NCBI GenBank assembly: GCA_038231455.1 | Contig: JBBRLI010000003.1 | Location: 32,001 to 96,000, forward strand | Reading direction: 5' to 3' | From: Vulcanimicrobiales bacterium | GTDB lineage: Bacteria; Vulcanimicrobiota; Vulcanimicrobiia; Vulcanimicrobiales; Vulcanimicrobiaceae | Length of the DNA: 64,000 nucleotides | In this document: positions 1,373 through 46,009 of the stretch, piece after piece | Layout: every line of letters begins with the position of its first letter | Position numbering within the stretch: position 1 is the stretch's first letter | Notes under the pieces: generated by a model | Told to the model about the DNA's origin: nothing | Seen by the model: only the letters and a program-made list of their open reading frames with translations | Database searches by the model: none | Program-made: the position numbers and the translations under genes

Positions 1373-2685
1373 CAGGCGAGCGAGGGCGGACGGTCATCGG
1401 CAATCACCGACTCGTAACTATGGGCAAAGTCCGTCGCCTTTTTCGCGAGTTTTAAGTTGCCCGCGGTAAGGAAGCACCGTGCAGCGCCAAGGTAGCCGTC
1501 TTGAATGCCGCGTGTGTCGTTCGCGGTCTCCGCCCACGACAGATACATTTTCCCAGCCAACCGCAAGAGCTTATTCGACAGATCGAGATGTTGCATCTGG
1601 CCAGCGGCGATCGATGCGCTGCGATAGGCAATCGCCGCGCGCGGAAAGAGCTTCTGCGCATCGCAGCGTTCGGCTTCGTGTAGATAGAGAGCGAGCGCCT
1701 CGCGATGTTTGCCAAGTTGCGAGGCCTCCACGGCTTTCGACCAGACGTCTCCGGTGAAGAGGTCGCTTGGGAGGGGGGCGTCGTTCTTTGGCGTCGTCGC
1801 CTGGGCGGCGGGCGTCACGGTGGATGTCGCGGTCGTCGCGCCGACCGCGACATCTGCGACCGAAGCAGCAACTGGTTCGACGTCGGCGAGGAGTCTGCGC
1901 CAGCGCATTTGCTGTTCGACGCGCGCGACGAGTTCGCGGCTCTCGAACGGTTTGGTCAGAAAGTCTTGTGCGCCCGCTTCGAGTGCGGCGACTTTGTCAT
2001 CGACTTGTGATTGACTCGTGAGCATGACGACGGGGATATTGCGTGTGATCGGATCGGCTTTGAGTTTCGTGATGGTCTCGCGGCCGTCCATGATCGGCAT
2101 GACCCAATCGATGAGAATCAAATCGGGGGGCTGACGTTTCGCGCTCTCGAGCGCGAGTAAGCCGTTGGAAACGTCGTCGACATCGAAGCCGCGACGCGTG
2201 AGCAATAAGCGCAGTAGCGAGCGAATACCGGAGTCGTCGTCGGCGACGAGAATGCGGCCTTTGCTCGGACTCTCGAGTTCCGCAGTCGACCGCGTGAGCG
2301 CGAGCATGGTGGCGAACGCGACCGTATTGGTTTCCAGTTGTGCTGCAAGACCCGGCGAGAGTGCGCCGCTGCCGTACGTTTCGATGAAGCCGTAGCAAAC
2401 GCCATCGGCAAGAATCGGAAGACCGATGAACGCGCCGCCCGGCCGATCGCCTTCAAATCGCTGATCGCCCGCCGTCGCCGCGAGCATCAGTGCCCCCGGA
2501 TCGTTTGCCGCAAGACATTCCGCGACGGCGGCCTGGCGCATTCCGCCTGACTCCGGCGCGTTGCTTTGCGATGCAACGAGTGCCAGTCGGGCACCCGGCG
2601 GTTCGAAGAGCCAAATGCGAACGGCCGCAAGGCCGAAGCTGCGGACTAATTCACGTGCATGCTCGTTTACCGGCGTGTCGATCAT
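1372..2685 (-). CDS. GAF-like + response regulator receiver + C-terminal TPR-like helical protein
   Basis: Receiver motifs ILVADDD, DLILIDWVMP, MLT, DFLTKPF; N-terminal GAF-like segment (LPILADGVCYGFIE); A/T/P-rich linker, then helical repeats. Confidence 0.8.
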   Translation of the reverse strand: MIDTPVNEHARELVRSFGLAAVRIWLFEPPGARLALVASQSNAPESGGMRQAAVAECLAANDPGALMLAATAGDQRFEGDRPGGAFIGLPILADGVCYGFIETYGSGALSPGLAAQLETNTVAFATMLALTRSTAELESPSKGRILVADDDSGIRSLLRLLLTRRGFDVDDVSNGLLALESAKRQPPDLILIDWVMPIMDGRETITKLKADPITRNIPVVMLTSQSQVDDKVAALEAGAQDFLTKPFESRELVARVEQQMRWRRLLADVEPVAASVADVAVGATTATSTVTPAAQATTPKNDAPLPSDLFTGDVWSKAVEASQLGKHREALALYLHEAERCDAQKLFPRAAIAYRSASIAAGQMQHLDLSNKLLRLAGKMYLSWAETANDTRGIQDGYLGAARCFLTAGNLKLAKKATDFAHSYESVIADDRPPSLA

Positions 2686-3635
2686 AAACTGAATCCGATG
2701 CTGATGGTCGGACGGAAGTCCGCATAGGTGGACGTCACGCCAAGTGGAAGCGGCGAACGTTTGATGTACGCACCTTTGAGGGCTTCGACAGAGATAATCG
2801 GCCCGGCTGTACCGAGCGGATGCGCGCGCACGCCGACGGTGAGTTCGACCAGATTGGAGTAGTAGAACGAGCGGGTATCCAGCGTTAGAACGCCGCGCGC
2901 GAACGGTTCGATCGGCCGCGCAAACGTGCCGATGTTGCGCGCCGTTTCAGCCTGGAGATAAGCGACCGTATCGGAGTAGCGGCTGTAGTAGGTGGTGCTT
3001 CCGTAGAAATTGCCGTAGTCGCGTTTACGCTGTGAGGTTGGGCCCCATTCGCGGTAGAGTTGCGCGCCAGCGCGCAGGTCACTGCCGGATGACTGGGCGG
3101 CGAGGGGACCGACGGTAAACGAACGGCCGCCTTGCGCGAAGAGCCGCAGGCCGCTGTGGTTCGTATATTGGAGACCGGCGCTCACAAGACCGTAGTTGTC
3201 GCTGAGCACGAGCGGCGTCGGCGGTTTGCCGTCGGTGCCGTTTCCGGGTGACGTGCGCGAATCTTTTACCAGCGCACCGTCGATGAATGGCCGGATGGTC
3301 GCGTTCGGACTGCCGAGCGGTTTATATGCATCGATCGAGACGATGAGATCGTTGTAACGCGTATCTTGCAACGCATAATTATACGAGTAGCCCGAACGAT
3401 CCGGGACGCGCGAGTGTGGCGATTCCGAGGCGACCGCTGCGGTTGGTGCGGGATCGGGCGATGCGGGAGCGTCCGTCGCGCTCGGACTAGGCGTTGCTTT
3501 CGGCGACGCCGTCGGCTCGACCGGAACGCTTGCGACGACGTCCCCCGTTTCGGTGTCGTCGGCGCGCGCGTAAAGAGACGGCGCAAATGCAAGACCCGCG
3601 ATGAAGACAAAGGCGATGATTTGGCGGAGCGTTAT
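2682..3635 (-). CDS. Secreted protein, probable outer-membrane beta-barrel; predicted ATA start
   Basis: Frame is open upstream of the TTG at 3371 through a P/S/T-rich linker to a signal peptide (ITLRQIIAFVFIAGLAFAPSLYARA-DD); beta-strand-like aromatic-rich C-terminus ending ISIGFSL. Confidence 0.6.
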   Translation of the reverse strand: MTLRQIIAFVFIAGLAFAPSLYARADDTETGDVVASVPVEPTASPKATPSPSATDAPASPDPAPTAAVASESPHSRVPDRSGYSYNYALQDTRYNDLIVSIDAYKPLGSPNATIRPFIDGALVKDSRTSPGNGTDGKPPTPLVLSDNYGLVSAGLQYTNHSGLRLFAQGGRSFTVGPLAAQSSGSDLRAGAQLYREWGPTSQRKRDYGNFYGSTTYYSRYSDTVAYLQAETARNIGTFARPIEPFARGVLTLDTRSFYYSNLVELTVGVRAHPLGTAGPIISVEALKGAYIKRSPLPLGVTSTYADFRPTISIGFSL

Positions 3636-5311
3636 GATGGCGGGTTCACCCGAAAGCGCTGGAGGATGTGCCGCGTTTGTTGGTAGTCGACCGCGACGAG
3701 ACGGTCGCCGCTGGCCGCAAGCGTACGCAGGTTACCCGCGAGCGGAAGACTGGCACCCGTGACGCCCGATTCGCTCGTTGCGATCAAGGCGTGTGCGATC
3801 CGGTCGAACGCGTAGAGCGTACCGTCGATGACGACCGGCCCTGCGAAGCGATTCTGGCGAACGGCATTCCGTTCGGCAAGGACGATTTGGCCGAGCGGCT
3901 CGGCGCGTTCGACATCGATGAGCGTGCCCTCGTCCGTCATGCCGATCGTCTTGCCGTGGTATGACGCCGTTCCGACGAGCCAGTTGAGGACGGGCGGCAA
4001 CGCGCGGCGCGAGACAACGGTTGCCGTCGCACCGGTGAGATGCACGTGGGTAAGATGGGGCGTCGCATGCGGCCACCAACCCGCTTGCTGCACGATCGTG
4101 ACGTCATCACCGCGAACGCTGATCGCGCTGATGAGCGCCGGATATCCGCGCCGATCCGACATGAGTTCATCGATTCGCCACGTACCGAGCACGCGGCCGT
4201 CGGCGTCCAGGTGGTAAAGTTCGGGTTGCACGGACGAGGCGAGATACATCGTCTCTCCGCTGATCGTAATCGGCCCGGGGTCGGCAAAACGGTCGTTTGC
4301 GATCTCGGGTAAAATCGTTCCCGTCGTCTGCAACGCATCGATCGATGCGAACCGGAAATTTGCGCCGACGCCGAGGCGGGGGATTGCGAGGAGATCGTTC
4401 GCGCGCTCGGCCGGAGCGGTGTCGCCCGGGATCGACACCACAAACGCGGCGCTATAGCCTTCCTTGCGCAGCGCATCGAACAGCCGCGACTTGAGATCAG
4501 GTGCGTTCGAGTGACCCGCCTCGAGCTTGGTGAGTGGATCGCCGCCGGCAAGCAATGCGCCATTTTGCCCGAACTCGCCGCTCGGATACGCGAAGAGCGA
4601 GATCGTTGTTTTCAGTTTGGGTTCAAACGTCTGGCGGAAGCGGCGCAGATCCATACGAATGCGCGTTTCGAATTCATCCCCGGTTTCGAGGCGGCGCTGA
4701 TCGGCGAGCCACATTTTGTTGGCGTACCAGTACGGATTTTTCGTGCCGCTCGCATCGACGATGATATTACTGTGGCCCATCCAGCCATGCGACTGAAGCG
4801 TCCACACATCGCCGGTTTGCATCTCTTGCAATTGTGCCGTCGTCAGTCGGCCGGGTTTCACATCCGTGAGGATGCCTTCAAAAAACATCGTCGCCGTCGC
4901 ATGATGTTTTTTCAAGACCGGTGTGCCCTCGGTATACGCGCTTGCATATCCGTCATCGAAGGTGAGGAGCAGGGGCTTTGCAGGCAACGCCGCGGCGTTC
5001 GTCCGATGCGATAAGTATGCCATTGCCGTCTCGAGTGAGATGACGTGATAGCCGTGGGCTTCGGCGTCCGCGAGCACCGCGTCAAATTCGGTCGGCGAAA
5101 TCCACGGCTTTTTAACCTGGTCTTCTCCACCGTTCGCACTGACGATCGGATCGCTCGAAATTTGATGGAACAGCAGTGTCGTGATGGCGATGTCCGGTAC
5201 CGGCACGATCGTCGGTGCGGCCGCCGCCACTTCAAACGGGAGCGCAGCAAGAAGAACGCCCGCAGCAAGCGAGCGCACGAGATGGAGGCTGCGGTCGAGT
5301 CTCACGATCAT
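3632..5311 (-). CDS. Secreted polysaccharide deacetylase (CE4/NodB, PgaB/IcaB-like) with C-terminal beta-rich domain
   Basis: Signal peptide; LLLTFDDGY, QSHGWMGH and FAYPSG CE4 motifs. Confidence 0.85.
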   Translation of the reverse strand: MIVRLDRSLHLVRSLAAGVLLAALPFEVAAAAPTIVPVPDIAITTLLFHQISSDPIVSANGGEDQVKKPWISPTEFDAVLADAEAHGYHVISLETAMAYLSHRTNAAALPAKPLLLTFDDGYASAYTEGTPVLKKHHATATMFFEGILTDVKPGRLTTAQLQEMQTGDVWTLQSHGWMGHSNIIVDASGTKNPYWYANKMWLADQRRLETGDEFETRIRMDLRRFRQTFEPKLKTTISLFAYPSGEFGQNGALLAGGDPLTKLEAGHSNAPDLKSRLFDALRKEGYSAAFVVSIPGDTAPAERANDLLAIPRLGVGANFRFASIDALQTTGTILPEIANDRFADPGPITISGETMYLASSVQPELYHLDADGRVLGTWRIDELMSDRRGYPALISAISVRGDDVTIVQQAGWWPHATPHLTHVHLTGATATVVSRRALPPVLNWLVGTASYHGKTIGMTDEGTLIDVERAEPLGQIVLAERNAVRQNRFAGPVVIDGTLYAFDRIAHALIATSESGVTGASLPLAGNLRTLAASGDRLVAVDYQQTRHILQRFRVNPPS

Positions 5312-31189: not shown

Positions 31190-33112
31190 ATGGGCAAGCA
31201 TCTCAAGTCGATCCTGATCGTTCTCGGCATCTTCATCCTGGTGATCTTCGTTGTCGACAAGCTCGTCTTGACGCAACCGAACTCCACGAAGATTTCGTAT
31301 AGCGCCTTCCTTGGTAAAGTGACCGACGATCAAGTCAAAAAGGTCACGATCGCCGGGACGGAAGTAGCGGGCGAATATGTCGGCACAACCGCCGATAAGT
31401 TCACCACGACCCTGCCGGCGAACGATCATCAGGCGATCGACCTCATGGAGAAGCATAAGGTCGACATCACGAACGAAAGCGGCGGGTCGACGCCGCTCTT
31501 CGGCTGGCTCGTCCAGCTCGTGCCGTTCATTTTGATGGCCCTGCTGCTCGTCTTCATTTTGCGCCAAGCGCAGAGCGGCGGCAGCCAGGCGCTCTCGTTT
31601 GGCCGCTCGCGGGCCAAGTTGCTCTCGGAGAACCGTCCGAAAGTGACCTTCGCCGATGTTGCCGGTGTCGAGGAAGCAAAAGAAGAGCTGGGCGAAGTTG
31701 TCGAATTCCTGAAATACCCGAAGAAATTTCAGGCGCTCGGCGCGCGTATCCCCAAAGGCGTTCTGCTCTTGGGCCCGCCGGGATCCGGTAAAACGCTCCT
31801 CGCTCGCGCGATCGCGGGCGAAGCCGGCGTGCCGTTCTTCTCGATATCGGGTTCGGACTTCGTGGAAATGTTCGTCGGCGTCGGCGCATCGCGCGTCCGC
31901 GACCTCTTCGAACAGGCGAAGAAATCAGCGCCTTGCATCGTGTTTATCGACGAAATCGACGCGGTCGGCCGCCAGCGCGGTGCGGGCCTCGGCGGCGGTC
32001 ACGACGAGCGCGAACAGACGCTCAACCAGCTGCTCGTCGAGATGGACGGATTCGATCAGAATACCGGCGTCATCTTGATCGCCGCGACCAACCGTCCCGA
32101 TGTGCTCGATCCCGCGCTCTTACGCCCCGGCCGCTTTGACCGACAGATCGTCGTCGACCGCGCAGATGTCAAAGGCCGCTCGGCGATTCTCGCCGTGCAT
32201 TCCAAGAACAAGCCGCTCTCCAAAGACATCTCACTCGACGTCCTTGCGAAACGCACGCCGGGATTCTCGGGTGCGGACCTTGAGAACTTGCTCAACGAAG
32301 CCGCGCTTCTTGCCGCGCGACGCAACAAGTCGGTCATCGAGATGAACGATTGCGAAGAAGCGATCGACCGCGTCGTTGCAGGGCCCGAACGTCGCTCGCT
32401 TGTGATGTCGCAAAAAGAAAAAGAAAATACGGCCTATCACGAATCGGGTCACGCGATCGTCGGAGGCATGTTGCCCAACGCCGATCCGGTTCACAAGGTC
32501 ACGATTATTCCGCGCGGTATGGCGCTCGGTATTACGTGGTCGATGCCCGATGAAGATCGCCACAGCCGCACCAAGAACGAATTGCTCGCACAGATCACGA
32601 TGGCGCTCTCCGGTCGCATCGCCGAAGAGATCCAGTTCCAAGACGTGACCACGGGCGCTTCGAACGACTTCGAAAAAGCGACCGAACTGGCGCGCCGCAT
32701 GGTGACGCAGTACGGCATGTCCGAGTCCCTCGGACCGATTCAATACGGACGCGGAAGCCATCAGGTGTTTCTCGGCCGCGACATCGGCGAAGATCGCAAC
32801 TACTCCGAGGAAATCGCCTCAAAGATCGACGCCGAAGTGCGCCGCATCATCGAAGAGTGCTACGGCGACGCCAAAGCTATCCTAACCTCGAATTGGGATA
32901 AGGTCGAACGCATGGTCGCAGCGCTCCTCGAACACGAGACGGTCGACACCGAAGAAGTCGGCGCGATCATCAACAATCGCCCGTATCCGGTTCCCAAGGA
33001 CGACGTCAAACCGGATTTGCCGGCGGCCGCCAGCATCGTGCACGAACCCGAAGCTTCGCGCGTCGAGAAACCCAAACGGCTTCCGCCCACCATCACGCCC
33101 GAGCCCGCCTAG
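31190..33112 (+). CDS. ftsH: ATP-dependent zinc metalloprotease FtsH
   Basis: Two TM segments, [26 protein letters not shown]. Confidence 0.98.
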
Positions 33113-34437
33113 TGCTCTTGCGGATCACCAGGGTCGCGCTCGGCGCGGCCCTTTTTCTTTCATCGGGCCTCGGCGCCGTCGCGACCGAGCCGAACGGCGC
33201 CCAGCTCGAAGCCGGGCGACTCGGCCCACTCACCGGAAAATTGCCCGCCGGCGGCACGTACGTGGTGAGTCCGGCTCCAGCCCTACCGGTCGCGGCGATT
33301 GCGCTCTGGTTCCGCGCGCCGCAAACGGGCTTTGGGGCCACGGCGACCCCGGGCATCGCCAAGATCGCGGCGAGCGCGGTGACGGCTTCCATCCCAATCA
33401 CCGGATCAACGCTCGGGCAGCTGGTGAATCGCGCCGGCGGCCGAATCGGGATTGCGACGTACCCCAATAGCGTTTCGGTATCCGCCATCGTCCCTGCGGC
33501 GGCGGCGGCGCAGATCGTGCGCGCGATGACCGCGTCGTTCTTCACGCCCGTAGTCACGCAGGCGGGCTTGAAAATCGCGCAACGCGACGTATCGAACGAA
33601 GCGCGGATCCATCTCTTCGCGGTCGACGATCAGCTCCAGGATGCGCTGCAAGCGCAACTTTTCAGCGCCGGCCCCGCAAAGTATCCGGCGCTGCCTACGG
33701 CTACGGCCGTCGGCGACTTTACGCTCGAGGCGGTTAAGGCGTTTGCGACGCGCGCGTTTCGTCCGCAAAATGCCGTGCTCGTCGTGACGGGTGCCATCGA
33801 TGCGCACATCGTCGATGCCGCTGTCCCCGGACGCACCGAAGGCGCAGTGCAAGAGCCGGCGCTAACCGAAACGCTTGCAGCTACGCCCGGTCCGTTCGAG
33901 CAAGCGGCGAGTTCGGCGGGCTACGGGTATGCCTGGAGCGGTCCCGCGATCAGCGCCGACCGCGAGGCAACGGCACTTGATTTCGTGGCGGATTATCTGT
34001 TCCGGCCCGATACCGGCACGCTCGCGCGCAAATTCGCGAGCGGCCCCGCGTCGGTCAACGGAAAGTTCGTCACCTATCACGACCCCGGTGTGTTTCTCGT
34101 CACGCTGAGCGGCGGCGATATGAACGCGACGCGCGCCATCGTGAGCGACGCCATTCTCGCGCTGAAGAAGCCGCTCGATGCGTCGGCTTTCGCACGTGCT
34201 CGCGATGCGTTCGTCTATCATATACGCAGCGATCTGCAAACGCCCTCGGAACTCGCCGACACCTTTGGTTGGTACGCGGTCGAAGGCAATCCGGATTACG
34301 CTCCCGGTGCGGGCGGCTTCAACGGTACGTACTTTCGCGACGCGCGCGAACTTACGCCCGATTTCGTTGCAGCGACCGTGAGCAAGTATTTAGGCGCGAT
34401 CTCTGCGACCGTTACGTTCAGTCGGAAGAAGCCATGA
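33112..34437 (+). CDS. M16 peptidase-like exported protein lacking HXXEH
   Basis: M16 patterns (ALWFRAP, FRPQNAVLVVTG); PGIAKIAAS where GxAHxxEH is expected. Confidence 0.65.
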   Translation: MLLRITRVALGAALFLSSGLGAVATEPNGAQLEAGRLGPLTGKLPAGGTYVVSPAPALPVAAIALWFRAPQTGFGATATPGIAKIAASAVTASIPITGSTLGQLVNRAGGRIGIATYPNSVSVSAIVPAAAAAQIVRAMTASFFTPVVTQAGLKIAQRDVSNEARIHLFAVDDQLQDALQAQLFSAGPAKYPALPTATAVGDFTLEAVKAFATRAFRPQNAVLVVTGAIDAHIVDAAVPGRTEGAVQEPALTETLAATPGPFEQAASSAGYGYAWSGPAISADREATALDFVADYLFRPDTGTLARKFASGPASVNGKFVTYHDPGVFLVTLSGGDMNATRAIVSDAILALKKPLDASAFARARDAFVYHIRSDLQTPSELADTFGWYAVEGNPDYAPGAGGFNGTYFRDARELTPDFVAATVSKYLGAISATVTFSRKKP

Positions 34438-35744
34438 TGCGATTCCTTACCACTGCCGCACTCGTGCTCGCCGGGACGACGGCGCTTGCAAGCCCACTGT
34501 ACCCGACGACGCGCACGATCGATCTTGGCGCCGCGAAACTCTATAGCCAGTACGACGATGCCGTCAGCGTCGCGGGCGTGCAAGTGTTCGTACCCGCAGG
34601 ACTCGAGCGGCAGACGACCGCTCAGAACGGGATCGCCGCGCTCACAGCGCAGAGCGTGCTGCAACTTCCCGTCGACGGCGTCCCGCTTCGCGATGCGATC
34701 GCCGCGCGTGGAGGGTCGCTCACGTATGCAATCGGCATGCAGTACACGCGCTTTTATCTTGAAGCGAGTGCCGATGTGCTACCGGACGTCCTGGCACTCG
34801 TCGGAAAAGCACTCTCGATGCCGACATTCACCAATGCCGCCGTCGCGCCCGCGCGGGCGGAACTGCTCGGCCGGATCGCCGACGACGCGCGAAATCCCGT
34901 TTCCGTCGGCATCGACATGCTGCGCTCGTCGTACTACATCGGGAGCGCGAACTTGCCGACGTACGGCAATGCGGGTAACGTTGCCAACCTCACCTCGGCC
35001 GACGTCGCGGCGTTTTACGCCGCGAACTATCGTCGCACGGGAACGGTCGTCTCCGCGGTCGGCGCGCTCGGCGATGCGATAACGAATGGCACCTCGGCGA
35101 TCGTCGCTGCGTTGCCCGATGGTCCGACTCCCGCCCTCACGATCAAAACGAAGCCGCTTGCGGCGGCGCCGCGCCGCATCGTTGCACACCGCGATTTCGG
35201 CGTGCCGTGGCTCGTGCTCGGGTTTGCAGCGCCGTCGGCGGGAGATCGTGATTTTGGCGCGATGCTCGTGTTGCAAGCACTGATCGGTGACGTTTTTGAC
35301 CGTGGCTCGGCGACGACGATCCCGGCGCTCGAACGGCCGATCGGTTCGGTCTACTCGTACGATTCCAAACCCGCCACCATCTCGCTCTACATCAACGGCG
35401 CTCAGATCGATCCATCGATCGGCTTGCGCGGCGTCGATGCCATCCTCAAATCGCTCGCACAGAAGCCGCTGAACAAGACGATCGTCGCGCGCTATAAAGC
35501 AACGGCGCGTGGAGCGTTTCTCACCGATGCAATCACCCTGGACGATCGCAGCTGGCGGATCGGTAATTTCGTCGAACATGGCCTGAGCCCGGATTATGCC
35601 GAGGCAGCACTGGCAGCGCTTGCGATGACGACGCCCGGCGACGTGCAGCGCATTGCGAAAACCTACATGCAGCGCTACACGATCGCGGTGATTCTGCCGC
35701 GCGAGGCGGCGCCTGCCGCAGCCAAGCCGGCCGCCTCGCGCTGA
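34434..35744 (+). CDS. M16 peptidase-like exported protein lacking HXXEH
   Basis: NGIAALTAQ, DVAAFYAANY, DVQRIAKTY. Confidence 0.7.
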   Translation: MMRFLTTAALVLAGTTALASPLYPTTRTIDLGAAKLYSQYDDAVSVAGVQVFVPAGLERQTTAQNGIAALTAQSVLQLPVDGVPLRDAIAARGGSLTYAIGMQYTRFYLEASADVLPDVLALVGKALSMPTFTNAAVAPARAELLGRIADDARNPVSVGIDMLRSSYYIGSANLPTYGNAGNVANLTSADVAAFYAANYRRTGTVVSAVGALGDAITNGTSAIVAALPDGPTPALTIKTKPLAAAPRRIVAHRDFGVPWLVLGFAAPSAGDRDFGAMLVLQALIGDVFDRGSATTIPALERPIGSVYSYDSKPATISLYINGAQIDPSIGLRGVDAILKSLAQKPLNKTIVARYKATARGAFLTDAITLDDRSWRIGNFVEHGLSPDYAEAALAALAMTTPGDVQRIAKTYMQRYTIAVILPREAAPAAAKPAASR

Positions 35745-36820
35745 ACGTCGCGCTCGTTCACGACTACCTCAACCAGCGCGGCGGTGCGGAGCGTGTTTTT
35801 ACGCGCATCGCCGCGGCGTATCCGGACGCGCCGATCTATACCTCGCTCTTCGATTCCCGTTTGCTCGGCGATTGGTTCGACCCAGCGCGCGTCCACACGT
35901 CGTTTTTGCAGCGATTTCCCGCGGCAAATCGGTATTTTCGAGCGCTCGCTCCGCTCTATCCGCGCGCCTTTGAAGCCTTCGATTTGCGCGCCTACGATAC
36001 GATCGTGAGCTCGACGACCGCGTGGGCCAAAGGGGTCATCGTTCGGCCCGGCGCGCTGCATGTGTGTTACATCAATACCGTCAGCCGCTTTGCGTTCGAC
36101 TACGAACGCTACGTTGGGGGCTTCGGCATCGGCGCGGTCGCGCGTCCGATGATCGACGGCCTCGTGCGTTGGGACAAGCGCGCTGCCGCGCGACCGACAC
36201 TCTTCGTTGCAAACTCAAACAACGTCGCGGCGCGCGTGCGCGAATATTACGGCCGCGATTCGCGCGTGCTGCCTTGTCCCGTGGATGTCGATCGCTTCAC
36301 CGTGGGTGCCGGCGATGGTGACTACGCAATCGTGATCTCCCGACTCTTACCGTATAAAAAAATCGACCGCGCAATTGCGGGTGCGGCGCTGGCGGGAATC
36401 CCGCTGCGCGTGCTTGGTACGGGTCCGGCAGAAGCATCGCTACGCGAACTTGCGCGCGGAACGCAAACGACGTTCTACGGCTATCTGAGCGACGCCGAGC
36501 GCAATGCGATGCTCGGCGCCGCGCGCTTTGCGATTCTGCCGGGTGAAGAAGATTTCGGACTCGTGCCGCTCGAGGCCGCAGCGGCGGGGCGACCGACGGT
36601 TGCGTTCGGCCGCGGCGGGGCGCTCGAGACGATCGTTAGCGGCGTAACCGGAACGTTCTTTGCCGAACCCACCGCGGAGTCGCTTGCGGCGGTTTTGAGC
36701 GCGTTCGATCCAGCGGCGTACGATCCCCAGACGCTACGGGCGCACGCGCAAACATTTGCGCCGGACCGCTTTATCGAACGCTTACGCGCGATCGTCAGCG
36801 AGGCGCGCGAGCTCGTCTAG
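35741..36820 (+). CDS. GT4 glycosyltransferase; predicted CTG start
   Basis: Conserved N-terminus NVALVHDYLNQRGGAERV lies upstream of the first TTG (35861); EEDFGLVPLEA signature. Confidence 0.85.
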   Translation: MNVALVHDYLNQRGGAERVFTRIAAAYPDAPIYTSLFDSRLLGDWFDPARVHTSFLQRFPAANRYFRALAPLYPRAFEAFDLRAYDTIVSSTTAWAKGVIVRPGALHVCYINTVSRFAFDYERYVGGFGIGAVARPMIDGLVRWDKRAAARPTLFVANSNNVAARVREYYGRDSRVLPCPVDVDRFTVGAGDGDYAIVISRLLPYKKIDRAIAGAALAGIPLRVLGTGPAEASLRELARGTQTTFYGYLSDAERNAMLGAARFAILPGEEDFGLVPLEAAAAGRPTVAFGRGGALETIVSGVTGTFFAEPTAESLAAVLSAFDPAAYDPQTLRAHAQTFAPDRFIERLRAIVSEARELV

Positions 36821-37816
36821 GGTCGCAAGCGCCGCGCCATCTCGCGTGGAAAACCCCCATCGGTGCTCGCTTTTTGCGGCTAGCCACGAGCGCAGCGGCT
36901 CGTCTCGAACGACCGATCGTAACGCCGATGCCCACGCCGTGCGATCGGTCGGGTCGACGAGCAAACCCGCATCGCCGACGGCTTCCGGGAGGGCCGTCGT
37001 GTTCGCTGCGACCACGGCGGCGCCGCACGCCTGTGCCTCGACCGCAACGAGCCCGAAACCCTCGGCAAGCGATGGAATCGCAACCGCCGTCGCCGTGCGA
37101 TAGAGCGTCCGCAGTTCGCTATCCGTCGGTGCGATGCGCACGAGCGGCACGCGTTTGCGTTTGGCGCGCTTCTCCGCGCGCGGGTCGAGTGCACCCGCGA
37201 TGACGAGTCGCACGTCGCGTTTTGGAAACGCGCGGGCAAACGCATCGATCAACAATGGCGCGTTCTTGCGCTTTTCACCCATCCCGACTGCTAGCACGAA
37301 TGGCGGTTCGACCGGCGCGTCTTCGTAACCGGGAAAGAAGAATCGGTTTGGCGCGTGCGGGATAGCGACCACGCGCTGCGGATCGACGCGGAAGAATTCG
37401 ATGACGCGCTCGCGCGTGTACCCGGAATTTGTCGCGATGCGCGTCGCAACGCGCGCGGCCTTGCGAATGGGGCCTTGCTCGCGCCTGCGCCCGATGAATC
37501 CGCGCGCGGGATATTCGAATGCGAAGAGATCGTGGATCGTGACGAGGGTGGGCGCGCGGCTCGGGAAACGGACGCCGTTCCAGGGATACCAGACCACATC
37601 GTAACGGTTGCGACGCTTTGCGCTTGCAAGATCCGCCAGTGCGAAACGGTCGGATGCGAGTATGTCGCGATAGGCTTGCGTGCGCTCGCGCCGGACCAGC
37701 AGCGTGAGGGCGATATCATCGCGCTCGAGTGCCTGGGTAAGCACGGAGAGCGCGAAACGGCCCATACCGCGCCGGTCCGCGAGTAGATTGATGGCATCGA
37801 CGGCGAGGCGGATCAC
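36782..37816 (-). CDS. GT4 glycosyltransferase (MtfB/WbpY-like)
   Basis: TIHDL, RKN, PSLAEGFGLVAVEA. Confidence 0.9.
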   Translation of the reverse strand: MIRLAVDAINLLADRRGMGRFALSVLTQALERDDIALTLLVRRERTQAYRDILASDRFALADLASAKRRNRYDVVWYPWNGVRFPSRAPTLVTIHDLFAFEYPARGFIGRRREQGPIRKAARVATRIATNSGYTRERVIEFFRVDPQRVVAIPHAPNRFFFPGYEDAPVEPPFVLAVGMGEKRKNAPLLIDAFARAFPKRDVRLVIAGALDPRAEKRAKRKRVPLVRIAPTDSELRTLYRTATAVAIPSLAEGFGLVAVEAQACGAAVVAANTTALPEAVGDAGLLVDPTDRTAWASALRSVVRDEPLRSWLAAKSEHRWGFSTRDGAALATLDELARLADDRA

Positions 37817-38535
37817 GGATGTTTCGTAGCGGCGGTCGCAAGATAGAGCGAGAGGCTCAAGAAATTGAACGTTCCGTGGGTGAGCATCGATGTCACAAGC
37901 GATCCCGTTTGATAGTAAATCCTTGCAAGAATCACGCCGGTCACCGCAAGCGGTAAGAAGCTCGTCGGATCTTCAAAGTGGGCGGCAGCGAAGATGAGAC
38001 CGCTGATAACGATTGCGCCCCAAACCGGTACGTAGCGCAGCACCGCGTTGAAGAGAAAACCGCGAAACATGAGTTCTTCGACGACCGGCCCGTAGATGAC
38101 GGCCACGAGTGCCGTCGTGATCAACCAGCCGCGCGGTTCGGTTTTGCTAAAAAAGCTGATGACGTTTTCGTGAACGTTGAAATGAAATAGGGACTGTTCG
38201 ATCGCACCGACCACCGCCGTCGACGCCAACATCACGATCGCGCCGATTAGCGCGTAGCCGAGATCGCGAAATCGAATCGGGTGCAGACCGAGTTCGCCGA
38301 GCGTTCTGTTGGCAATGCGCGGCAGCGCGAAAAGCAGCAGCACGACTAGCGGCAATTCGATGAATACCGTTGCAATGAACGTCCACTCCGACGGCGCGGT
38401 TTTCGTCCCAAGCGGAAGATGGAGCGCACGGAAGACCGTCCCGACCCCGAAACCGGCGATCAAAAATGTCGCGACCACCGCCGCGAGAAGCGCGAGCGAC
38501 CGGGTAATGGAAAAGCTGCTAGCCGGCCAATTCGT
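37813..38535 (-). CDS. CPBP (CAAX/Abi) intramembrane metalloprotease; start uncertain
   Basis: EELMFRG, FAAAH and HGTFN motifs; candidate starts ACG 38535, ATT 38508 or TTG 38463. Confidence 0.8.
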   Translation of the reverse strand, partial: TNWPASSFSITRSLALLAAVVATFLIAGFGVGTVFRALHLPLGTKTAPSEWTFIATVFIELPLVVLLLFALPRIANRTLGELGLHPIRFRDLGYALIGAIVMLASTAVVGAIEQSLFHFNVHENVISFFSKTEPRGWLITTALVAVIYGPVVEELMFRGFLFNAVLRYVPVWGAIVISGLIFAAAHFEDPTSFLPLAVTGVILARIYYQTGSLVTSMLTHGTFNFLSLSLYLATAATKHP

Positions 38536-39343
38536 CGGCGAGAGCGGCGAAGGTGGCGAGGTCGAGGTTTTCCCCACGGATCTCCGGATCGATAGCGAGT
38601 GATGTAAGTGCGGCGACGGTGCGCTCGCGTGGAATGGCGAGCGCCAAGAGTAACGAGTTCGCCAGTGTCTTGCGGCGGTACGCGAATGCGGCGCGCACGA
38701 CCTCTTCAAAATACTTTGGATCGCGCGTCGCTACGGGCGGCGTTTCGTGTCGATGCAGCACGACGACCGCTGAGACGACACCGGGGCGCGGGTAGAACTG
38801 CGAGGGCGACACGACGAGTGCGCGTTCCACACGCGCGCGGTAGTTGACGGCAACCGAAAGGCTGCCGTAGGCGGCTGTCCCCGCTTTTGCGGTGAGGCGA
38901 TCGGCGACGTCGCGCTGGATCATCGCGATCACGCGCTCAGGCGGATGTTCGAGTGCGAGCAGTTTGAGCATCAATGGCGTTGCGATGTTGTACGGCAAAT
39001 TGCCGGCGGCGATCCACGGTCCGCGCGCACCGAACGATTCGTAGTCGTACGCGAGCGCGTCGCCTTCATCGATCCTCACGCGCGCGAGATCCTCGCGCGA
39101 ACGTAAGATTGCTACCATCTCGGGATCGACGTCGAACGCCGTTACATCGGCGCCCGTACGTTCGAGTGCAATCGTGAGCGCCCCGGTCCCGGCACCGATT
39201 TCCAAGACCCGTTCGTCACCTCGGGGCGCGGCAAGTTTAGCGATCTTCGTGGAGACCGCTCCATCCATGAGAAAATTTTGTCCGAGACGTTTCTTCGGCC
39301 GGAGGCCCGCTGCGTTGAGCAGCGCGCGCGGATGACTATCTAT
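38519..39343 (-). CDS. rsmA: 16S rRNA adenine dimethyltransferase; predicted ATA start
   Basis: PKKRLGQNFL lies upstream of the ATG at 39268; EIGAGTG, GNLPYNI, RRKTL. Confidence 0.95.
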   Translation of the reverse strand: MDSHPRALLNAAGLRPKKRLGQNFLMDGAVSTKIAKLAAPRGDERVLEIGAGTGALTIALERTGADVTAFDVDPEMVAILRSREDLARVRIDEGDALAYDYESFGARGPWIAAGNLPYNIATPLMLKLLALEHPPERVIAMIQRDVADRLTAKAGTAAYGSLSVAVNYRARVERALVVSPSQFYPRPGVVSAVVVLHRHETPPVATRDPKYFEEVVRAAFAYRRKTLANSLLLALAIPRERTVAALTSLAIDPEIRGENLDLATFAALADELAG

Positions 39344-40452
39344 TTGAGAACGTACACACGAATCGCGCGGCGCCCAAAGACGATCGCGTCGCTATTAGAT
39401 TCGAAGCCGAGGTCGATGCGGTTGCCGATGATCGCGCCGCCCGTGTCGCCGGCGATCGCGTGTCCGTAACCCGGAATATAGAGGTGCGAGCCGAGGCGAA
39501 TAACGTGCGGATCGACGGCGACGATGCCGTGTCCGGCGCGCATGCCCAGCGCCGCGCGCCCGCTGCAACCGTAGCAATTCGCCGTATACGCGGTTGCGAC
39601 CATCGAGAGTGCGGCGGTTGCCAGACGAATCGTTCCGTCCATACCGCGTTTTGCAATCGACGAGCTCGATTCGAATTCGCTAATGCCTTCGGCTACAACG
39701 CTTTCGCGCGCCGGGCGCACGATGCGCGAGGCAACGATACGTTTGTGCGGTTGCGCGGCATCGGCATCTTGCGCGAACGCATACGTCACTTCGCGCACAC
39801 CGGGAACGCCAGCTTTGATGACCTTATGTTGACCGGGTCGAATTCCAAATGCATAAACGAGTTTGGTCGTCGGCGCGAGCACCAGGCGCACGCGCTCTTG
39901 CCATGCAAGGCGACGCGTTACACGAATGAGAGCATCCTGTGCAAATGCCGTGTCGCGTGTCGGAAAAACTTTGTCGCGTGTGGAGAGCTTCACGCCCGCC
40001 TCGTCGAGAACTTCGCCAACCGTACGCGCAGCGGTACGAATCGTGCGACGTTCGTCATCGACGATGAGCGTCACCGGAACGGCTGCGCGGAACTCGACGG
40101 TCGCGCCATCACTCAGGAAGGAGGCAGCATCCGGAGTGAGGCGATCTTCGAGCGCCGGTGCGATTCCACGTTCGATCAAGAGATCGGCGATGGTCGCGGC
40201 GCGCGTTTCGACGGTAGTCGTCACGCCGTTTTCGATGAGCGTAATACGTTTTTGCTGCCGTGAGTCGTCGGCCGCTGCAGGGGCCGAGGCCACGCTTGCA
40301 ACGACCGTGTGTGCGAGAGCCGCACTGCGATCGGCAAAAAACGTGCCAGCGCCAAATGGAATGAGAAGGCCGAGTGAGAGAACGCCGGTTGCCGCAAACG
40401 GCTTACGTGAGTCGCGTCCGATAACCCAACTCCTTTCTTGACGGAACGGCAT
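39340..40452 (-). CDS. YabE/RpfB-like cell-wall protein (DUF348 repeats + G5 + 3D)
   Basis: Ubiquitin-like repeats, G5 (GVPGVRE), 3D motif ATAY...AVDPHVIRLG...DTGGAIIGNRID; precedes rsmA as yabE/rpfB do. Start ATG 40452 or ATC 40422. Confidence 0.85.
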   Translation of the reverse strand: MPFRQERSWVIGRDSRKPFAATGVLSLGLLIPFGAGTFFADRSAALAHTVVASVASAPAAADDSRQQKRITLIENGVTTTVETRAATIADLLIERGIAPALEDRLTPDAASFLSDGATVEFRAAVPVTLIVDDERRTIRTAARTVGEVLDEAGVKLSTRDKVFPTRDTAFAQDALIRVTRRLAWQERVRLVLAPTTKLVYAFGIRPGQHKVIKAGVPGVREVTYAFAQDADAAQPHKRIVASRIVRPARESVVAEGISEFESSSSIAKRGMDGTIRLATAALSMVATAYTANCYGCSGRAALGMRAGHGIVAVDPHVIRLGSHLYIPGYGHAIAGDTGGAIIGNRIDLGFESNSDAIVFGRRAIRVYVLK

Positions 40453-40523
40453 GTCGTACAGCGCGATATGCATGGCAGATCGTGTATGCGACTGACGTTC
40501 GCTAGAGGTGGTTGTGCAAGCTT

Positions 40524-40619
40524 CCTGACCAGGCAGCTCACGGGTGGACTCGCGGCACGGATGCAAGGCGAATCCGGTGGATAGAGTAGCCCACCACGCA
40601 GCTTTCGGCCGGGCGGGAC
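40524..40619 (-). ncRNA. Candidate structured 5' leader RNA (possible c-di-AMP riboswitch variant)
   Basis: Nested pairings CCCGGCC/GGTCAGG, AGCT/AGCT, GGTGGGCT/AGTCCACC, CGGAT/ATCCG directly after a sigma70-like promoter. Confidence 0.4.
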
Positions 40620-40625
40620 TGGGTG

Positions 40626-40655
40626 ACGATAGCACAGCCAAGTGATCCGCGTCAA
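40626..40655 (-). promoter_or_regulatory. Sigma70-like promoter for the yabE-like/rsmA operon
   Basis: TTGACG-18 nt-TATCGT with an extended -10 TG. Confidence 0.55.
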
Positions 40656-40693
40656 ATTCTTGTGCCGCATAGGCCCGAAAGTCCTAACCGCCA

Positions 40694-41867: not shown

Positions 41868-41880
41868 ACAAATAACGATC

Positions 41881-42315: not shown

Positions 42316-42318
42316 CCG

Positions 42319-42909
42319 CTGGATCCGATCCCGCGCGCCGGCCTCCCCCTCGACACGTTGGGGCTTGCGCGCTTCTTGATCGGCCTGTTGCTTGTGCGCG
42401 AACGGGACGGGATCCAGCTGGTCGGCCGGATCGTCGAGACGGAGGCCTATACGCCGGGCGATCCCGCCTCGCACGCCTACCGTGGCGAGACGAAGCGCAA
42501 CGGCGCCATGTTTCTTGAACCGGGGCATGCGTACGTCTACCTCATCTACGGTACCGCGTTCTGTATGAACGTGACGACCGAAGCCGCTGGCGTGGGGGCC
42601 GCCGTGTTGATCCGAGCGCTCGAACCGGTTTCCGGACTCGATGCAATGCGTGCGAACCGCGCCGGGATCGCCGACCGCGATCTTGCGCGAGGCCCCGGAC
42701 GTTTGTGCAAAGCGCTCGACATCGGTGCCGATCAGAACGGCATTGCCCTCGATCCGGGCGGGCCGCTCTGGATCGCCCGCGATCGCGCGCCGCTCGCCGA
42801 AATCGGCGAGAGTACGCGGATCGGGCTCACGAAAGCCGCCGACATACCGCATCGTTTCTATGCTCGAGGCAGCCGCTACATCAGTGGTCCTCGTGCCCTG
42901 TCGCCGTAG
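42319..42909 (+). CDS. mpg: 3-methyladenine DNA glycosylase (AAG/MPG family); probable CTG start
   Basis: GRIVETEAY, DPASH, YVYLIYG, AVLIRA, GPGRLC, RIG. Confidence 0.93.
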   Translation: MDPIPRAGLPLDTLGLARFLIGLLLVRERDGIQLVGRIVETEAYTPGDPASHAYRGETKRNGAMFLEPGHAYVYLIYGTAFCMNVTTEAAGVGAAVLIRALEPVSGLDAMRANRAGIADRDLARGPGRLCKALDIGADQNGIALDPGGPLWIARDRAPLAEIGESTRIGLTKAADIPHRFYARGSRYISGPRALSP

Positions 42910-42986
42910 GCTCGCCCGCTTCAAAGCGGCGCTTCTATTGAAGGAGCGTTTGCGGCTAGATTAAGGAGTGTGCTAAAGTCGTCATC

Positions 42987-43742
42987 GTGAGCGAACGAAT
43001 GCGGCTTCAGCGCTACCTTGCGCAAGCCGGCGTCGCGTCACGACGCAAAGCCGAGGAGTTGATCGTCGCCGGCGCTGTGCGCGTGAACGGCAACGTCGTC
43101 AAGGAGCTGGGAACGACCGTCGGCGAGGACGATCGCGTTGAATATGCGGGTCGCGTCGTCACGCCCGCCGAGACGCTCAGTTACATCGTGCTCCACAAAC
43201 CGTACAACTGCATGACGACCATGAGCGACCCTGAAGGTCGCCGGACGGTCGCCGAGGTGTTGAAGTCGCGCGGCATCAAGCAGCGCGTGGTTCCGGTCGG
43301 CCGACTCGACTACGATACCGCTGGAGTCCTGTTGCTCACCGATGACGGCGACCTCGCCCATATCTTGACGCATCCACGCTTCGGGGTGGAAAAAACGTAT
43401 CGCGCAACGCTGCAGGGCCGGCTCGAACCCTCGGAATTCGCCCGCGTCACCGGCGGCATGAAGCTCGAAGACGGCCGTACGGCCGAGGCGGCCTTGAAGG
43501 TCGTCGCCGTTTCTCGCGGCCGCTCCGTTGTCGACCTCACGATCCACGAAGGCCGCAACCGCCAGATCCGGCGCATGTTCGAGGCGGTCGGCCACCCGGT
43601 CATTGATTTGATTCGCCTGCGCTTCGGGCCGATTTCACTCGGCGATCTTACCGCCGGGGAGATGCGTCCCGCCAACGACCGGGAGCGCAAAGCGCTTGCC
43701 GTTATCGAAAACGAAGCGCGCGCAAGCGAGGAACGCGTATGA
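42987..43742 (+). CDS. rluB: rRNA pseudouridine synthase (RluB/RsuA family)
   Basis: RLQRYLAQAGVASRR S4 domain, VGRLD, EGRNRQIRRM. Confidence 0.88.
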   Translation: MSERMRLQRYLAQAGVASRRKAEELIVAGAVRVNGNVVKELGTTVGEDDRVEYAGRVVTPAETLSYIVLHKPYNCMTTMSDPEGRRTVAEVLKSRGIKQRVVPVGRLDYDTAGVLLLTDDGDLAHILTHPRFGVEKTYRATLQGRLEPSEFARVTGGMKLEDGRTAEAALKVVAVSRGRSVVDLTIHEGRNRQIRRMFEAVGHPVIDLIRLRFGPISLGDLTAGEMRPANDRERKALAVIENEARASEERV

Positions 43743-44116
43743 GTTCGGTCGTGCGCGGGATTCGCGGCGCGATCACCGCCGATGCCGATACCACCGAGGG
43801 GATCCTCGATGCCACGCAGCGGCTCTTGGCGGCCATCGTCGAAGCAAACCATATCGCGACCGAAAATATCGCATCCGTGCTCTTTACCGTCACCCCCGAT
43901 CTCAAAGCCCAATTTCCCGCCGCCGCCGCGCGTCGCATGGGCTGGACCCTGGTGCCGCTCTTGAACTTCACCGAGATCGCGGTACCCGGGGGTCTCGAGC
44001 GCTGCATTCGCGTGCTCTTGCATCTTAATACCACCCTCGGACAATCCGAGATCGTTCACGTGTACCTCGAGGGCGCTCGCGCGCTCCGTCCCGACTTGGA
44101 GCAGAACCCGAAATGA
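43739..44116 (+). CDS. aroH: Chorismate mutase, AroH class
   Basis: VRGIRGA, FPAAAAR, HVYLEGARALRPD. Confidence 0.95.
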   Translation: MSSVVRGIRGAITADADTTEGILDATQRLLAAIVEANHIATENIASVLFTVTPDLKAQFPAAAARRMGWTLVPLLNFTEIAVPGGLERCIRVLLHLNTTLGQSEIVHVYLEGARALRPDLEQNPK

Positions 44117-45159
44117 TCGTCGTCATGCGCCCGCACGCCGCCCCCGCGAACGTGGACGCCGTTATCGCAACCGTCGAGAGCTTAGGTCTCACCGCACACG
44201 TGAGTCAAGGCGCGGAGCGCACCGTGATCGGTGTTGTCGGCATACGCGATGACAAAGAAACGCTTATCGCGCAATTTTCGCAGTTCGACGGCGTCGAAAA
44301 CGTGATGCCGATTTCGCGCTCGTATAAACTCGTCAGCGCGGAAGCTCGCACCGGACGGAGCATCATCCGTCTGAAAAACGGCGCGAGTTTCGGCGGCGAA
44401 CAGCTTGCAATTATGGCCGGCCCGTGCAGCGTCGAGAGTCGCGAACAACTCGAAGCGACGGCCCGTTCGGTCTCGCAGAGCGGTGCGAACGTCTTGCGCG
44501 GCGGGGCGTTCAAGCCGCGCACGTCGCCGTACGCATTCCAAGGCATGGGCGAGGCGGGACTACGGCTGCTGCGCGAGACCGCCGATCAGTACGGCCTTGC
44601 CGTCGTCACCGAGGTGATGGACGTACGCGATGTGGAGCTCGTGGCAAAGTACGCGGACATGCTGCAAGTCGGCGCGCGCAACATGCAGAATTTCAACTTG
44701 TTGCGCGAAGTCGGAAACGTGCGCGTCCCCGTTTTACTCAAACGCGGTCTTGCAGCAACGATCGACGAGTGGCTGATGGCTGCTGAATACATCGTCGTCA
44801 CCGGCAATCACGACGTCGTCCTCTGCGAGCGCGGAATCCGCTCGTTCGATCCAATGACGCGCAACGTGCTGGACCTCGCCGCCGTGCCGCTCGTGCAGTC
44901 GCTCTCGCATCTTCCCGTCGTGGTCGACCCCTCGCACGGCACGGGCGTGCGTATTCTGGTCGAACCGATGGCGAAAGCGGGCATCGCTTGTGGTGCCGAC
45001 GGTCTGATTATCGAAGTCCATCCCAATCCCGCCGTCGCCGTCTCGGACGGACCGCAGTCGCTCACCCTCGATGGATTCGCGCGTGTGATGGATCGGCTCC
45101 GTCCGGTGGCCGAGGCCGTCGGGCGTTCGCTCCCCGCTACGGTCAACGCCGGCGTTTAA
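44113..45159 (+). CDS. aroF: DAHP synthase (type I-beta with N-terminal regulatory domain)
   Basis: [30 protein letters not shown]. Confidence 0.95.
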
Positions 45160-46009
45160 GCGCGTCGGCGTCGCCGGCGTCGGACTCGTCGGCGGTTCGG
45201 TCGCGCTCGCTGCGCATGCAGCGAAAGCAACGGTCACCGCTTTTGAGACGAGTACGCTTGCGCTCGCGTATGCGCGCGAGAAGCGCATGGTCGATGCGAG
45301 CGTCGCGGATCTTGCCGCACTCGCTCGCGCGGTCGATGTCCTCGTCTTGGCAGCGCCGCTGCCGGCAACGCTCGACGCGCTCGCAGAACTGCAGGCGCTC
45401 GATACGACCGGACCCTGGCCGGTCCTTATCCTCGATGTCGCCTCGACCAAGCGCGCGGTCGCAAAGGCGGGGGCGCCGGTGCGTAATTTTGTCCCTTCGC
45501 ACCCAATCGCGGGTGCGGAGCGACGCGGTCCGACGGCGGCACGCGCGGATCTCTTCGTCGGCCGGACCTGGGCATTCGTCCCAACCGAACCCGGGCTTGA
45601 CCGGCTCGCGCGAGAATTCATCACCGCGATGGGTGCCGAGCCCTTACCGATCGGCGCAGACCGGCACGACGAAGTCCTCGCGCTGACCTCACATTTGCCC
45701 CAACTGGTCTCGACGGTGCTTGCCGCGACGCTCGCCGCTCACACCGCGCAAGCCGATGTTTCGACCCTCTGCGGACCGGGGATGTCATCCATGCTGCGTT
45801 TAGCTCACGCGGACTTTGCGCTCTGGGAGCCGATCCTCAGCGAAAACCGGCTCGCGGTCGCCGCGATGCTGGCAGAACTCAATTCACGTCTCGAGGCTGC
45901 TCGGTTAGCACTCGAGCGAGGAGAGGTTCCCGCCCTTGCGTCGTATTTCGGTGACGCGCATCGAGCGGTCCGCGAGCTTGAGGAACGATCCCCAAAGCCG
46001 TCCCGTTAG
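45146..46009 (+). CDS. tyrA: Prephenate dehydrogenase; start non-canonical and uncertain
   Basis: Rossmann motif [14 protein letters not shown] begins at 45158, upstream of the first ATG (45287); DVASTK, SHPIAG, HD...SHLP. Confidence 0.88.

Follow-up and report, generated by a model that had tools for sequence, protein, structure and literature searches.

In 34 well-annotated genomes, ATG, GTG and TTG (the codons called canonical throughout this text) account for 81.8, 13.8 and 4.35% of the starts, respectively, and infC and pcnB are given, in the part of that source consulted, as the sole genes of Escherichia coli with confirmed non-canonical starts (Hecht et al., 10.1101/063800). For Caulobacter crescentus, ribosome profiling and liquid chromatography-mass spectrometry (LC-MS) led to shares of 0.7% for CTG and 0.25% for other near-cognate codons among 3,235 coding sequences (Schrader et al. 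2014, PMC4117421). Reinitiation behind a stop codon in E. coli uses fMet-tRNA, IF2 and IF3; it depends on a formylated initiator tRNA with three G-C pairs, decreases with excess IF3, and loses accuracy upon inactivation of the ribosome recycling factor (RRF). A GUA start in the coupled recJ gene is cited in the same work (Yoo and RajBhandary 2008, PMC2268962). Gene overlaps of the -4 type are treated as NTGA by Huber et al. 2023 (PMC10666635), and in the sections consulted ATT, a rare partner of -5 overlaps, is the only non-canonical codon named. Statements on all of these sources refer to the sections of them that were consulted. Here, we describe a window of 64,000 nucleotides, the whole stretch of DNA that was analysed (contig C3, JBBRLI010000003.1, positions 32001-96000), from the genome of an uncultured soil bacterium of the Vulcanimicrobiales (Eremiobacterota), in which several genes appear to start at near-cognate codons placed on or directly behind the stop codon of the preceding gene.

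Four of these genes, coding for a GT4-family glycosyltransferase, the 16S rRNA dimethyltransferase KsgA, the prephenate dehydrogenase TyrA and a secreted protein, need N-terminal sequence that no canonical codon reaches, as judged by the position of domains, motifs or a signal peptide; this is in good agreement with what the first-pass annotation had claimed for them. We put at roughly 0.7 the probability that they and their counterparts elsewhere in the genome are genuine genes which initiate, by coupling, at near-cognate codons lying only a few nucleotides from where a preceding co-oriented gene stops. CTG and ATA/ATC/ATT are well supported as putative starts, and AAG, ACG and GTA are possible ones in single cases. 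From the sequence we infer both reinitiation or coupling as the route of initiation and the exact codon assigned to each gene.

The codons are, as in C. crescentus and E. coli, those that differ from AUG by a single mismatch (CTG, ATA, ATC, ATT), and they stand in ordinary genes. Their frequency of at least about 0.7% is similar to the 0.95% of Caulobacter (PMC4117421), and infC, which starts with AUU in E. coli (10.1101/063800), opens with ATA, ATC or ATT in all 30 genomes compared here. While the Caulobacter starts were mapped, ours are derived from sequence and comparison, and they are concentrated at upstream stops. Unlike in both model organisms, non-canonical starts at single junctions are at least as frequent as any canonical codon (CTG in 26 of 78 loci for the GT4 gene; 22 of 30 loci for PriA). 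With the termination-reinitiation described for ATGA and TGATG junctions (Huber et al. 2019, PMC6728339; PMC10666635; PMC2268962, in the sections consulted) our cases share the co-orientation of the genes, a distance of 4 nt or very little more or less, and the frequent absence of a Shine-Dalgarno (SD) sequence. Compared with the NTGA overlaps of PMC10666635, the junctions that we take to be coupled comprise CTGA as well as ATAA and ATAG. A literature search on Eremiobacterota and start codons led, judged by the listings, to no work on the subject.

Candidate starts in the window

The genome analysed (G000) is a metagenome-assembled genome (MAG) of 3.71 Mb in 106 contigs, with 62% G+C and a completeness of 94%. 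The comparison covered 40 relatives. One (G001, a separate MAG) belongs to the same genus, 23 to the same family (f1), five to a second family (f2) and eleven to a third family of the class (f3). Rows from the unpublished genomes G009, G020, G022 and G036 are included in the counts (ksgA L010, L018, L024; GT4 L039, L048, L059; glycerate kinase L237, L242; PriA L270, L275; tyrA L291; IF3 L326, L328, L331, L347); no conclusion hangs on those rows alone. In up to 78 related species, CTG, ATA, ATT or ATC occupies in some orthologues the position at which others carry ATG, GTG or TTG. The overlaps CTGA, ATAA and ATAG reported by the first-pass annotation were all found where it had placed them. Their coordinates, and those of the genes concerned, are collected in Table 1.

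The open reading frame (ORF) of the GT4 gene, taken from stop to stop, opens at 35567. The CTG of the junction is its residue 59, the Glyco_transf_4 domain begins at residue 72, and the first canonical codon, TTG at 35861, is residue 99; with a start there, the protein would lack its N-terminal strand and glycine loop (VALVHDYLNQRGGAER). In the start column of 30 orthologous loci, 13 canonical codons stand beside eight CTG, seven GTA, one ATA and one ACG. All five f3 loci of this set read GTG, and all five f2 genomes read GGGAGGGG-N5-GTA-G/A with no alternative conserved. A wider set of 80 species loci was fetched, 78 of which carry the ALVHDY motif: 41 have a canonical start, 26 CTG, four ATT and seven another codon. 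The canonical starts comprise 16 ATG, nine GTG and nine TTG in one column plus seven nearby, and the same column holds 24 of the CTG codons. Locus L099 reads TAG-CTG-A, with an in-frame TAG immediately 5' of the CTG, and L096, L100, L112, L130, L132 and L135 carry an in-frame stop 3-5 codons 5' of the CTG with no other near-cognate codon between. In these loci the CTG must be the GT4 start, provided that the gene is expressed.

As a side observation on the upstream neighbour, two M16-like peptidase genes (33112..34437 and 34269..35744) adjoin in this region and their longest canonical ORFs overlap by 169 nt, so that the start of the second is uncertain as well.

In ksgA, position 4 of the RrnaAD profile corresponds to residue 16, and the KKRLGQNFL motif lies 5' of the sole ATG (39268, residue 26). 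The start column of 30 loci holds 17 canonical codons, which sit at the head of a conserved HPRALL segment, seven ATA-G from six genera, two ATT, one ATC and one case that is either CTGA or ATT; the two remaining loci are that of G009, which has no candidate codon, and that of G020, which is masked by N.

For tyrA, named by the first-pass annotation as a related case together with mpg and a CPBP protease gene, the claim holds: in the stop-to-stop ORF the PDH_N domain begins at residue 39 and the first ATG is residue 67. The Rossmann motif starts at AAG 45158, and this ATG (45287) follows 43 codons downstream, past the GxGxxG. Among 30 loci, 22 could be aligned at the N-terminus, 15 of them with canonical starts, and in the genus studied AAG stands opposite the GTG or ATG with which the others start. 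The TAAG junction is identical in G001, where ACG 45146, the only usual near-cognate nearby, is absent.

The secreted protein matched no Pfam family. Read from the ATA, its sequence begins with the signal peptide TLRQIIAFVFIAGLAFAPSLYA; the first canonical codon, TTG 3371, lies 88 codons downstream. Homologues were found in five of the 40 relatives. In the G001 homologue, which has retained the signal peptide, the ATG is placed one codon 5' of the position of ATC 3638 and two codons 5' of that of ATA 3635. ATA and ATC are equally possible as starts.

In mpg and the CPBP gene the case is weaker, with a canonical codon close by. Position 6 of the Pur_DNA_glyco profile corresponds to residue 13 of the mpg ORF and TTG 42358 to residue 15; a start at this TTG would sacrifice no more than about 7 of the 181 positions in the profile, and CTG 42319 or ATC 42328 fits better. 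As to the CPBP protein, TTG 38709 and GTG 38577 fall within the ksgA coding region, where the CPBP frame scores negative. Past the ksgA stop, the ATH at 38508 lies ahead of the first transmembrane helix, and GTG 38478, the earliest canonical codon there, falls within that helix. Hence the window holds four solid and two ambiguous cases in about 65 genes and is richer than the genome overall.

Table 1. Junctions and genes of the window discussed in the text (positions within the window).
Feature	Position	Strand	Remarks
Secreted protein, no assigned family	2682..3638	-	N-terminal signal peptide in sequence
ATCATAA junction (+ strand TTAT at 3632-3635)	3632..3638	-	TAA stop of the polysaccharide-deacetylase-domain gene, included in the ATAA at 3632-3635, with ATA 3635..3633 or ATC 3638..3636
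Polysaccharide-deacetylase-domain gene	3632..5311	-	
Upstream M16-like peptidase gene	34269..35744	+	TGA overlaps CTG; weak Pfam matches Peptidase_M16_C, Peptidase_M16; ORF list
CTGA junction	35741..35744	+	TGA stop of M16-like peptidase gene with CTG at 35741, probable GT4 start
GT4-family glycosyltransferase gene, probable CTG start	35741..36820	+	Pfam Glyco_transf_4
CPBP (Rce1-like) protease gene, ambiguous	37813..38508	-	Rce1-like domain; probable ATH start at 38508, 11 nt past ksgA stop
ksgA, 16S rRNA adenine dimethyltransferase, probable ATA start	38519..39343	-	Pfam RrnaAD
ATAG junction (+ strand CTAT)	39340..39343	-	TAG stop of DUF348/3D gene with ATA 39343..39341, probable ksgA start
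Upstream DUF348/3D-domain gene	39340..40641	-	Pfam DUF348, 3D; ends ...RVYVLK-TAG, C-terminal motif kept in relatives
mpg, methylpurine DNA glycosylase, ambiguous	42316..42909	+	ORF opens directly past TAG 42313-42315; CTG 42319, ATC 42328, TTG 42358
TAAG junction	45157..45160	+	TAA stop of DAHP synthase gene with AAG 45158
tyrA, prephenate dehydrogenase, start AAG or ACG	45158..46009	+	Pfam PDH_N

Start columns of PriA and glycerate kinase

Two further junction genes, found outside the window, were aligned in the same manner. PriA has a canonical start in eight of 30 loci. The other 22 divide into CTA-G (10, all of which have an ATT two codons upstream), CTG-A (4), CTG (5, all f2), ATA (2) and ATT (1). 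Glycerate kinase has 17 canonical and 12 non-canonical starts in 29 loci. Here the overlap codon of G000 is GTA, and the GTG, ATG or TTG of relatives aligns with a CTG two codons further on; in G038 and G014, CTA-A and TTA-G stand at the aligned start.

We had considered that the codon in the overlap is always the start. This rule was rejected on the alignments of these two genes and on the base frequencies before stop codons. The proposal of the first-pass annotation that the overlap codon is used goes too far for NTA other than ATA, where the two alignments choose a nearby CTG or ATT. GTA, CTA and TTA may do no more than indicate the frame, and a near-cognate codon close to them may be the actual start.

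Upstream of priA (loci L251-L278), the preceding gene carries at its end a 13-base segment, CGAATTCCGCTAG, that is near letter-identical in ten genomes of nine genera. This conservation exceeds the need of the three C-terminal residues (EFR) encoded there.

Genome-wide scan

Genes of G000 were called with a home-made dicodon model (3,243 genes), which replaced GC3 alone and a codon-only finder, both of them poor discriminators. The scan looks for genes whose coding signal extends upstream of the first canonical codon. It returned 59 candidates, 42 of them in the -4 frame and 17 in the -2 frame, whose ORF lacks a canonical start altogether or has its nearest one at least 15 codons upstream. The overlap tetranucleotides of the -4 cases are CTGA (11), CTAG (7), ATAG (6), CTAA (5), GTAG (4), GTAA (4), ATAA (2), TTAG (2) and TTAA (1); canonical -4 overlaps number 268 ATGA, 178 GTGA and 43 TTGA. 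In four more candidates, the true GT4 case among them, the downstream frame had a coding score on the 5' side of the junction as well, and they were excluded as possible frameshifts. For the -2 frame, CTG, ATC or ATT one to three codons past the stop is the probable start (CoaE, oxidoreductase, ParA, DapB, SelA).

A Pfam search on 41 of the 59 candidates found 20 in which the domain starts before the first canonical codon: an ABC ATPase, MGDG synthase, HD, Secretin_N, HisB, glycerate kinase, PriA, EamA, GT2, RecG, YmdB, LivH, two hydrolases, an ArsB-like protein, CoaE, an FAD/NAD oxidoreductase, ParA, SelA and DapB. Together with the four genes of the window, this genome-wide comparison of N-termini, which the first-pass annotation had proposed as a check, yields at least 24 supported genes among about 3,240, i.e., about 0.7%. 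Rejected by eye were S16, HisF, PanD, MQO, a kinase and two further low scorers; the Pfam search exposed two more as false, an IS3 frameshift gene and an ADH.

Baselines for bacteria of other phyla are literature values only. Against these, the frequency is high for E. coli and ordinary for Caulobacter, and the earlier statement that such starts are far more common than in model bacteria survives for the former, with its two confirmed genes, and fails for the latter (0.95%, in the consulted sections of PMC4117421). The pipeline was also run on 800 kb each of G000, G005 (f1) and G032 (f3). The G000 sample gave 13 candidates, and that of G032 gave ten, eight of them supported by Pfam, including three CTGA.

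Sequence context of the junctions

Strong candidates (score above 10) are found in 36 of 705 genes that are contiguous with an upstream stop, compared with six of 889 same-strand genes behind a gap and seven of 849 divergent genes. This is an approximately seven-fold enrichment, which rests on home-made gene calls, so that fragmented genes could inflate the contiguous class. The earlier claim that usable codons lie at or beside the upstream stop is borne out, and the enrichment fits coupling or reinitiation.

Among -4 cases with a TAA or TAG stop, an A precedes the stop in eight of 31 compared with a background of 12.8% (p = 0.05), a weak enrichment. ATA is a very rare sense codon in G000 (1.1 per 1000 codons) and still recurs at aligned start positions. 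ATA is weakly favoured at junctions.

SD-like motifs were defined as GGAG, GAGG or AGGA at -18 to -5. They precede six of 23 supported candidates, 126 of 489 canonical overlaps and 61 of 1000 control positions inside genes; as rates, canonical overlaps reach 26%, candidates 19-26% and the intragenic controls 6%. Genome-wide, the three motifs occur at only about a quarter of the canonical starts, and the lineage seems to rely little on SD pairing.

Interpretation and alternative explanations

Translational coupling is, in our view, the most likely basis of these starts. Ribosomes of the upstream gene, by terminating at the junction or by unfolding it, would give a high local supply of 30S or 70S particles, and a start that is poorly accepted by conventional fMet-tRNA and IF3 might still yield enough product. 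The output would be sufficient for low-abundance enzymes such as KsgA, PriA, RecG, HisB, CoaE, DapB, TyrA and glycosyltransferases. In evolution, the junction codon could drift among ATG, GTG, TTG and CTG (as NTGA) or to ATA (as ATAA or ATAG), and changes of this kind would leave the upstream stop intact.

Several observations weigh against this reading. C, G and T stand before TAA or TAG at background frequency among the 31 junctions of the -4 type, and the codon in the 4-nt overlap is not always the start, as glycerate kinase and PriA align to a CTG or ATT two codons off. SD frequency fails to separate non-canonical from canonical junction genes, and with equal frequencies a dependence on reinitiation is unsupported by the SD data. 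No near-cognate codon is present at ksgA of G009 or at glycerate kinase of G037 and G009, and for tyrA the candidates are limited to AAG or ACG, between which the exact start cannot be fixed. At least nine of the 59 candidates from the home-made gene finder are false. The related genomes are non-independent samples, and the 800-kb sample of G005 gave five candidates, none of them supported by Pfam and all of spurious appearance. The weak-start habit spans the class, yet it is patchy.

Some of these points bear as well on a second possibility, namely that translation restarts irrespective of the start codon at any NTR overlapping the stop (CTG, ATA, GTA, CTA, TTA), with AAG and TTT perhaps accepted too. 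The 42 genes of the -4 frame without a canonical start do include CTAG, CTAA, GTAG, GTAA, TTAG and TTAA, the GTA at the GT4 junction is shared by all f2 genomes, and CTA-A and TTA-G stand at the aligned start of two glycerate kinases, as AAG does at that of tyrA in both genomes of the genus. In E. coli, moreover, inactivation of RRF leads to non-canonical initiation downstream of stops (PMC2268962, in the sections consulted). Set against this are the background frequency of C, G and T before TAA and TAG, the presence of RRF in G000, and the fact that those starts which can be resolved fall on a nearby CTG or ATT, as in the ten PriA loci with CTA-G; the five f2 genomes also represent one genus. 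We regard such a restart as improbable. It is likewise unlikely that Eremiobacterota, and perhaps other slow-growing soil lineages, employ a post-termination restart with almost no start-codon selection. Were it true, start codons inside operons would be nearly free in evolution, and the mode would be distinct from de novo initiation proofread by IF3.

The first-pass annotation had named altered IF3 proofreading as a possible cause, and suggested an inspection of infC and the initiator tRNA. A cell-wide relaxation of this kind, by a change in IF3 or the initiator tRNA, would make near-cognate codons acceptable everywhere. Haggerty and Lovett reportedly described in 1997 that infC alleles of E. 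coli suppress the GUA start of recJ. More generally, IF3 mutants of E. coli raise non-canonical initiation, including that at the GUA of the coupled recJ (PMC2268962, in the sections consulted). The IF3-fidelity mutants resemble our genomes, as interpreted here, in their AUA-, CUG- and GUA-type initiation, which includes a coupled gene without SD. Non-canonical starts are frequent across the class, and IF3 here has an unusual acidic C-terminal tail. The other evidence speaks against a relaxed machinery. Both components proved conventional: the initiator tRNA (C3:180887-180963) carries C1xA72 and three G-C pairs (GGG/CCC), and none of the other tRNAs among the 46 found in the 94% complete genome has initiator features. 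When aligned to its E. coli counterpart, IF3 of G000 is identical at Y75, R99, D106, R131 and E134, which we take to be the fidelity residues. In 30 of 30 genomes infC keeps a start behind a GGAG-type motif (ATA 23, ATC 5, ATT 2), in several cases with an in-frame stop just upstream. The same arrangement relies in E. coli on IF3 rejecting codons of this type, and discrimination against them would thus still be in use. In both respects, the conserved residues and the retained autoregulatory starts, the genomes differ from the E. coli mutants. Moreover, rpsL (GTG) and dnaA (ATG) of G000 start canonically, and the candidates cluster at junctions instead of being evenly spread. The data on the machinery weigh against proofreading having been lost in general, and we rate this explanation as quite improbable.

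With respect to IF3 itself (infC at G000:C7:133400-134269; loci L318-L347), the acidic tail is of low complexity and follows the conserved LAP motif. It measures 75 residues in G000 and 22-91 across the measurable relatives; the PDB entries for IF3 from E. coli, Bacillus and Thermus show no such extension.

It is very unlikely that the proteins start at the downstream canonical codons and that the in-frame stretch before them is untranslated. For mpg and the CPBP protein, with a canonical codon near, a slightly shorter product is conceivable. GT4, ksgA, tyrA and the 20 genes of the scan, however, would lose the beginnings of their Pfam domains, including Rossmann and P-loop motifs, or signal peptides; coding potential is positive in the upstream frame, and relatives in which this segment is headed by a canonical start conserve its residues.

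As to errors, the codons found in G000 at the junctions of ksgA, GT4, tyrA, PriA and glycerate kinase are also those of G001, which thereby matches three of the four solid window junctions. Logan contigs of run X1, which is probably the source sample and hence non-independent, span 35500-45400; these are contigs, not raw reads, and they differ from the window only at 38938, 38939 and 40351, leaving the junction codons unchanged. Many of the relatives are complete chromosomes, and the codons occur among these as well. The bases 5' of the stop vary between relatives, so that there is no slippery heptamer as in the programmed -1 frameshift of IS3-like elements, and on the 5' side of most junctions the downstream frame has a negative score. 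Errors of sequencing or assembly, pseudogenes with frameshifts and -1 fusions with the upstream gene are therefore hardly credible as a general cause, in spite of the 106 contigs of the MAG, an IS3 transposase and an apparently split KaiC among the candidates and the four candidates set aside, given the recurrence of the codons in G001 and many independent assemblies, the agreement of a separate assembly of the reads (X1), the unrelated families of upstream and downstream genes with downstream domains starting at about profile position 1, and the stop immediately 5' of CTG that excludes a fusion in some species.

The IS3-family transposase, located near 15338 of G000:C12 (+), changes frame between orfA and orfB as is usual for such elements, and the KaiC-like gene, seemingly split into pieces of 111 and 375 residues, lies near 9659 of G000:C10 (-).

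Consequences for annotation

To judge from comparative evidence, coupled initiation at near-cognate junction codons appears to be lineage-wide and a real example of an already known kind of initiation. Since its frequency matches the mapped value of Caulobacter, the phenomenon may be general in high-GC bacteria and under-annotated, and not a peculiarity of this lineage. Gene callers limited to ATG, GTG and TTG would, judging by their start-codon sets, have to truncate the genes described here, as had been pointed out before. They would truncate or misplace about 1% of the genes in these uncultured soil bacteria, housekeeping enzymes among them, and the losses would include signal peptides and cofactor-binding motifs. 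Calling starts with the help of orthologues would be the remedy. The first base of NTGA appears nearly free at the GT4 junction (16 ATG, nine GTG, nine TTG and 24 CTG in one column), which offers natural data on start-codon selection. The ksgA ATAG, GT4 CTGA, PriA and tyrA TAAG junctions provide concrete objects for the study of reinitiation at weak codons.

Further observations

Some candidate ORFs open straight after the in-frame stop of the upstream gene, which is TAG in eleven cases, TAA in four and TGA in none. An example is a strongly coding stretch of 138 codons past a TAA at G000:C10:13947-14960. Such ORFs could be broken genes, cases of read-through, or genes with starts just past the stop.

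In genomes of such G+C content, TGA is usually the dominant stop codon. By the home-made gene calls, stop usage in G000 is near even (TAA 1110, TAG 1109, TGA 1024). TGA is more frequent in the 800 kb sampled from each of G005 and G032 than in G000, and TAG is still abundant there.

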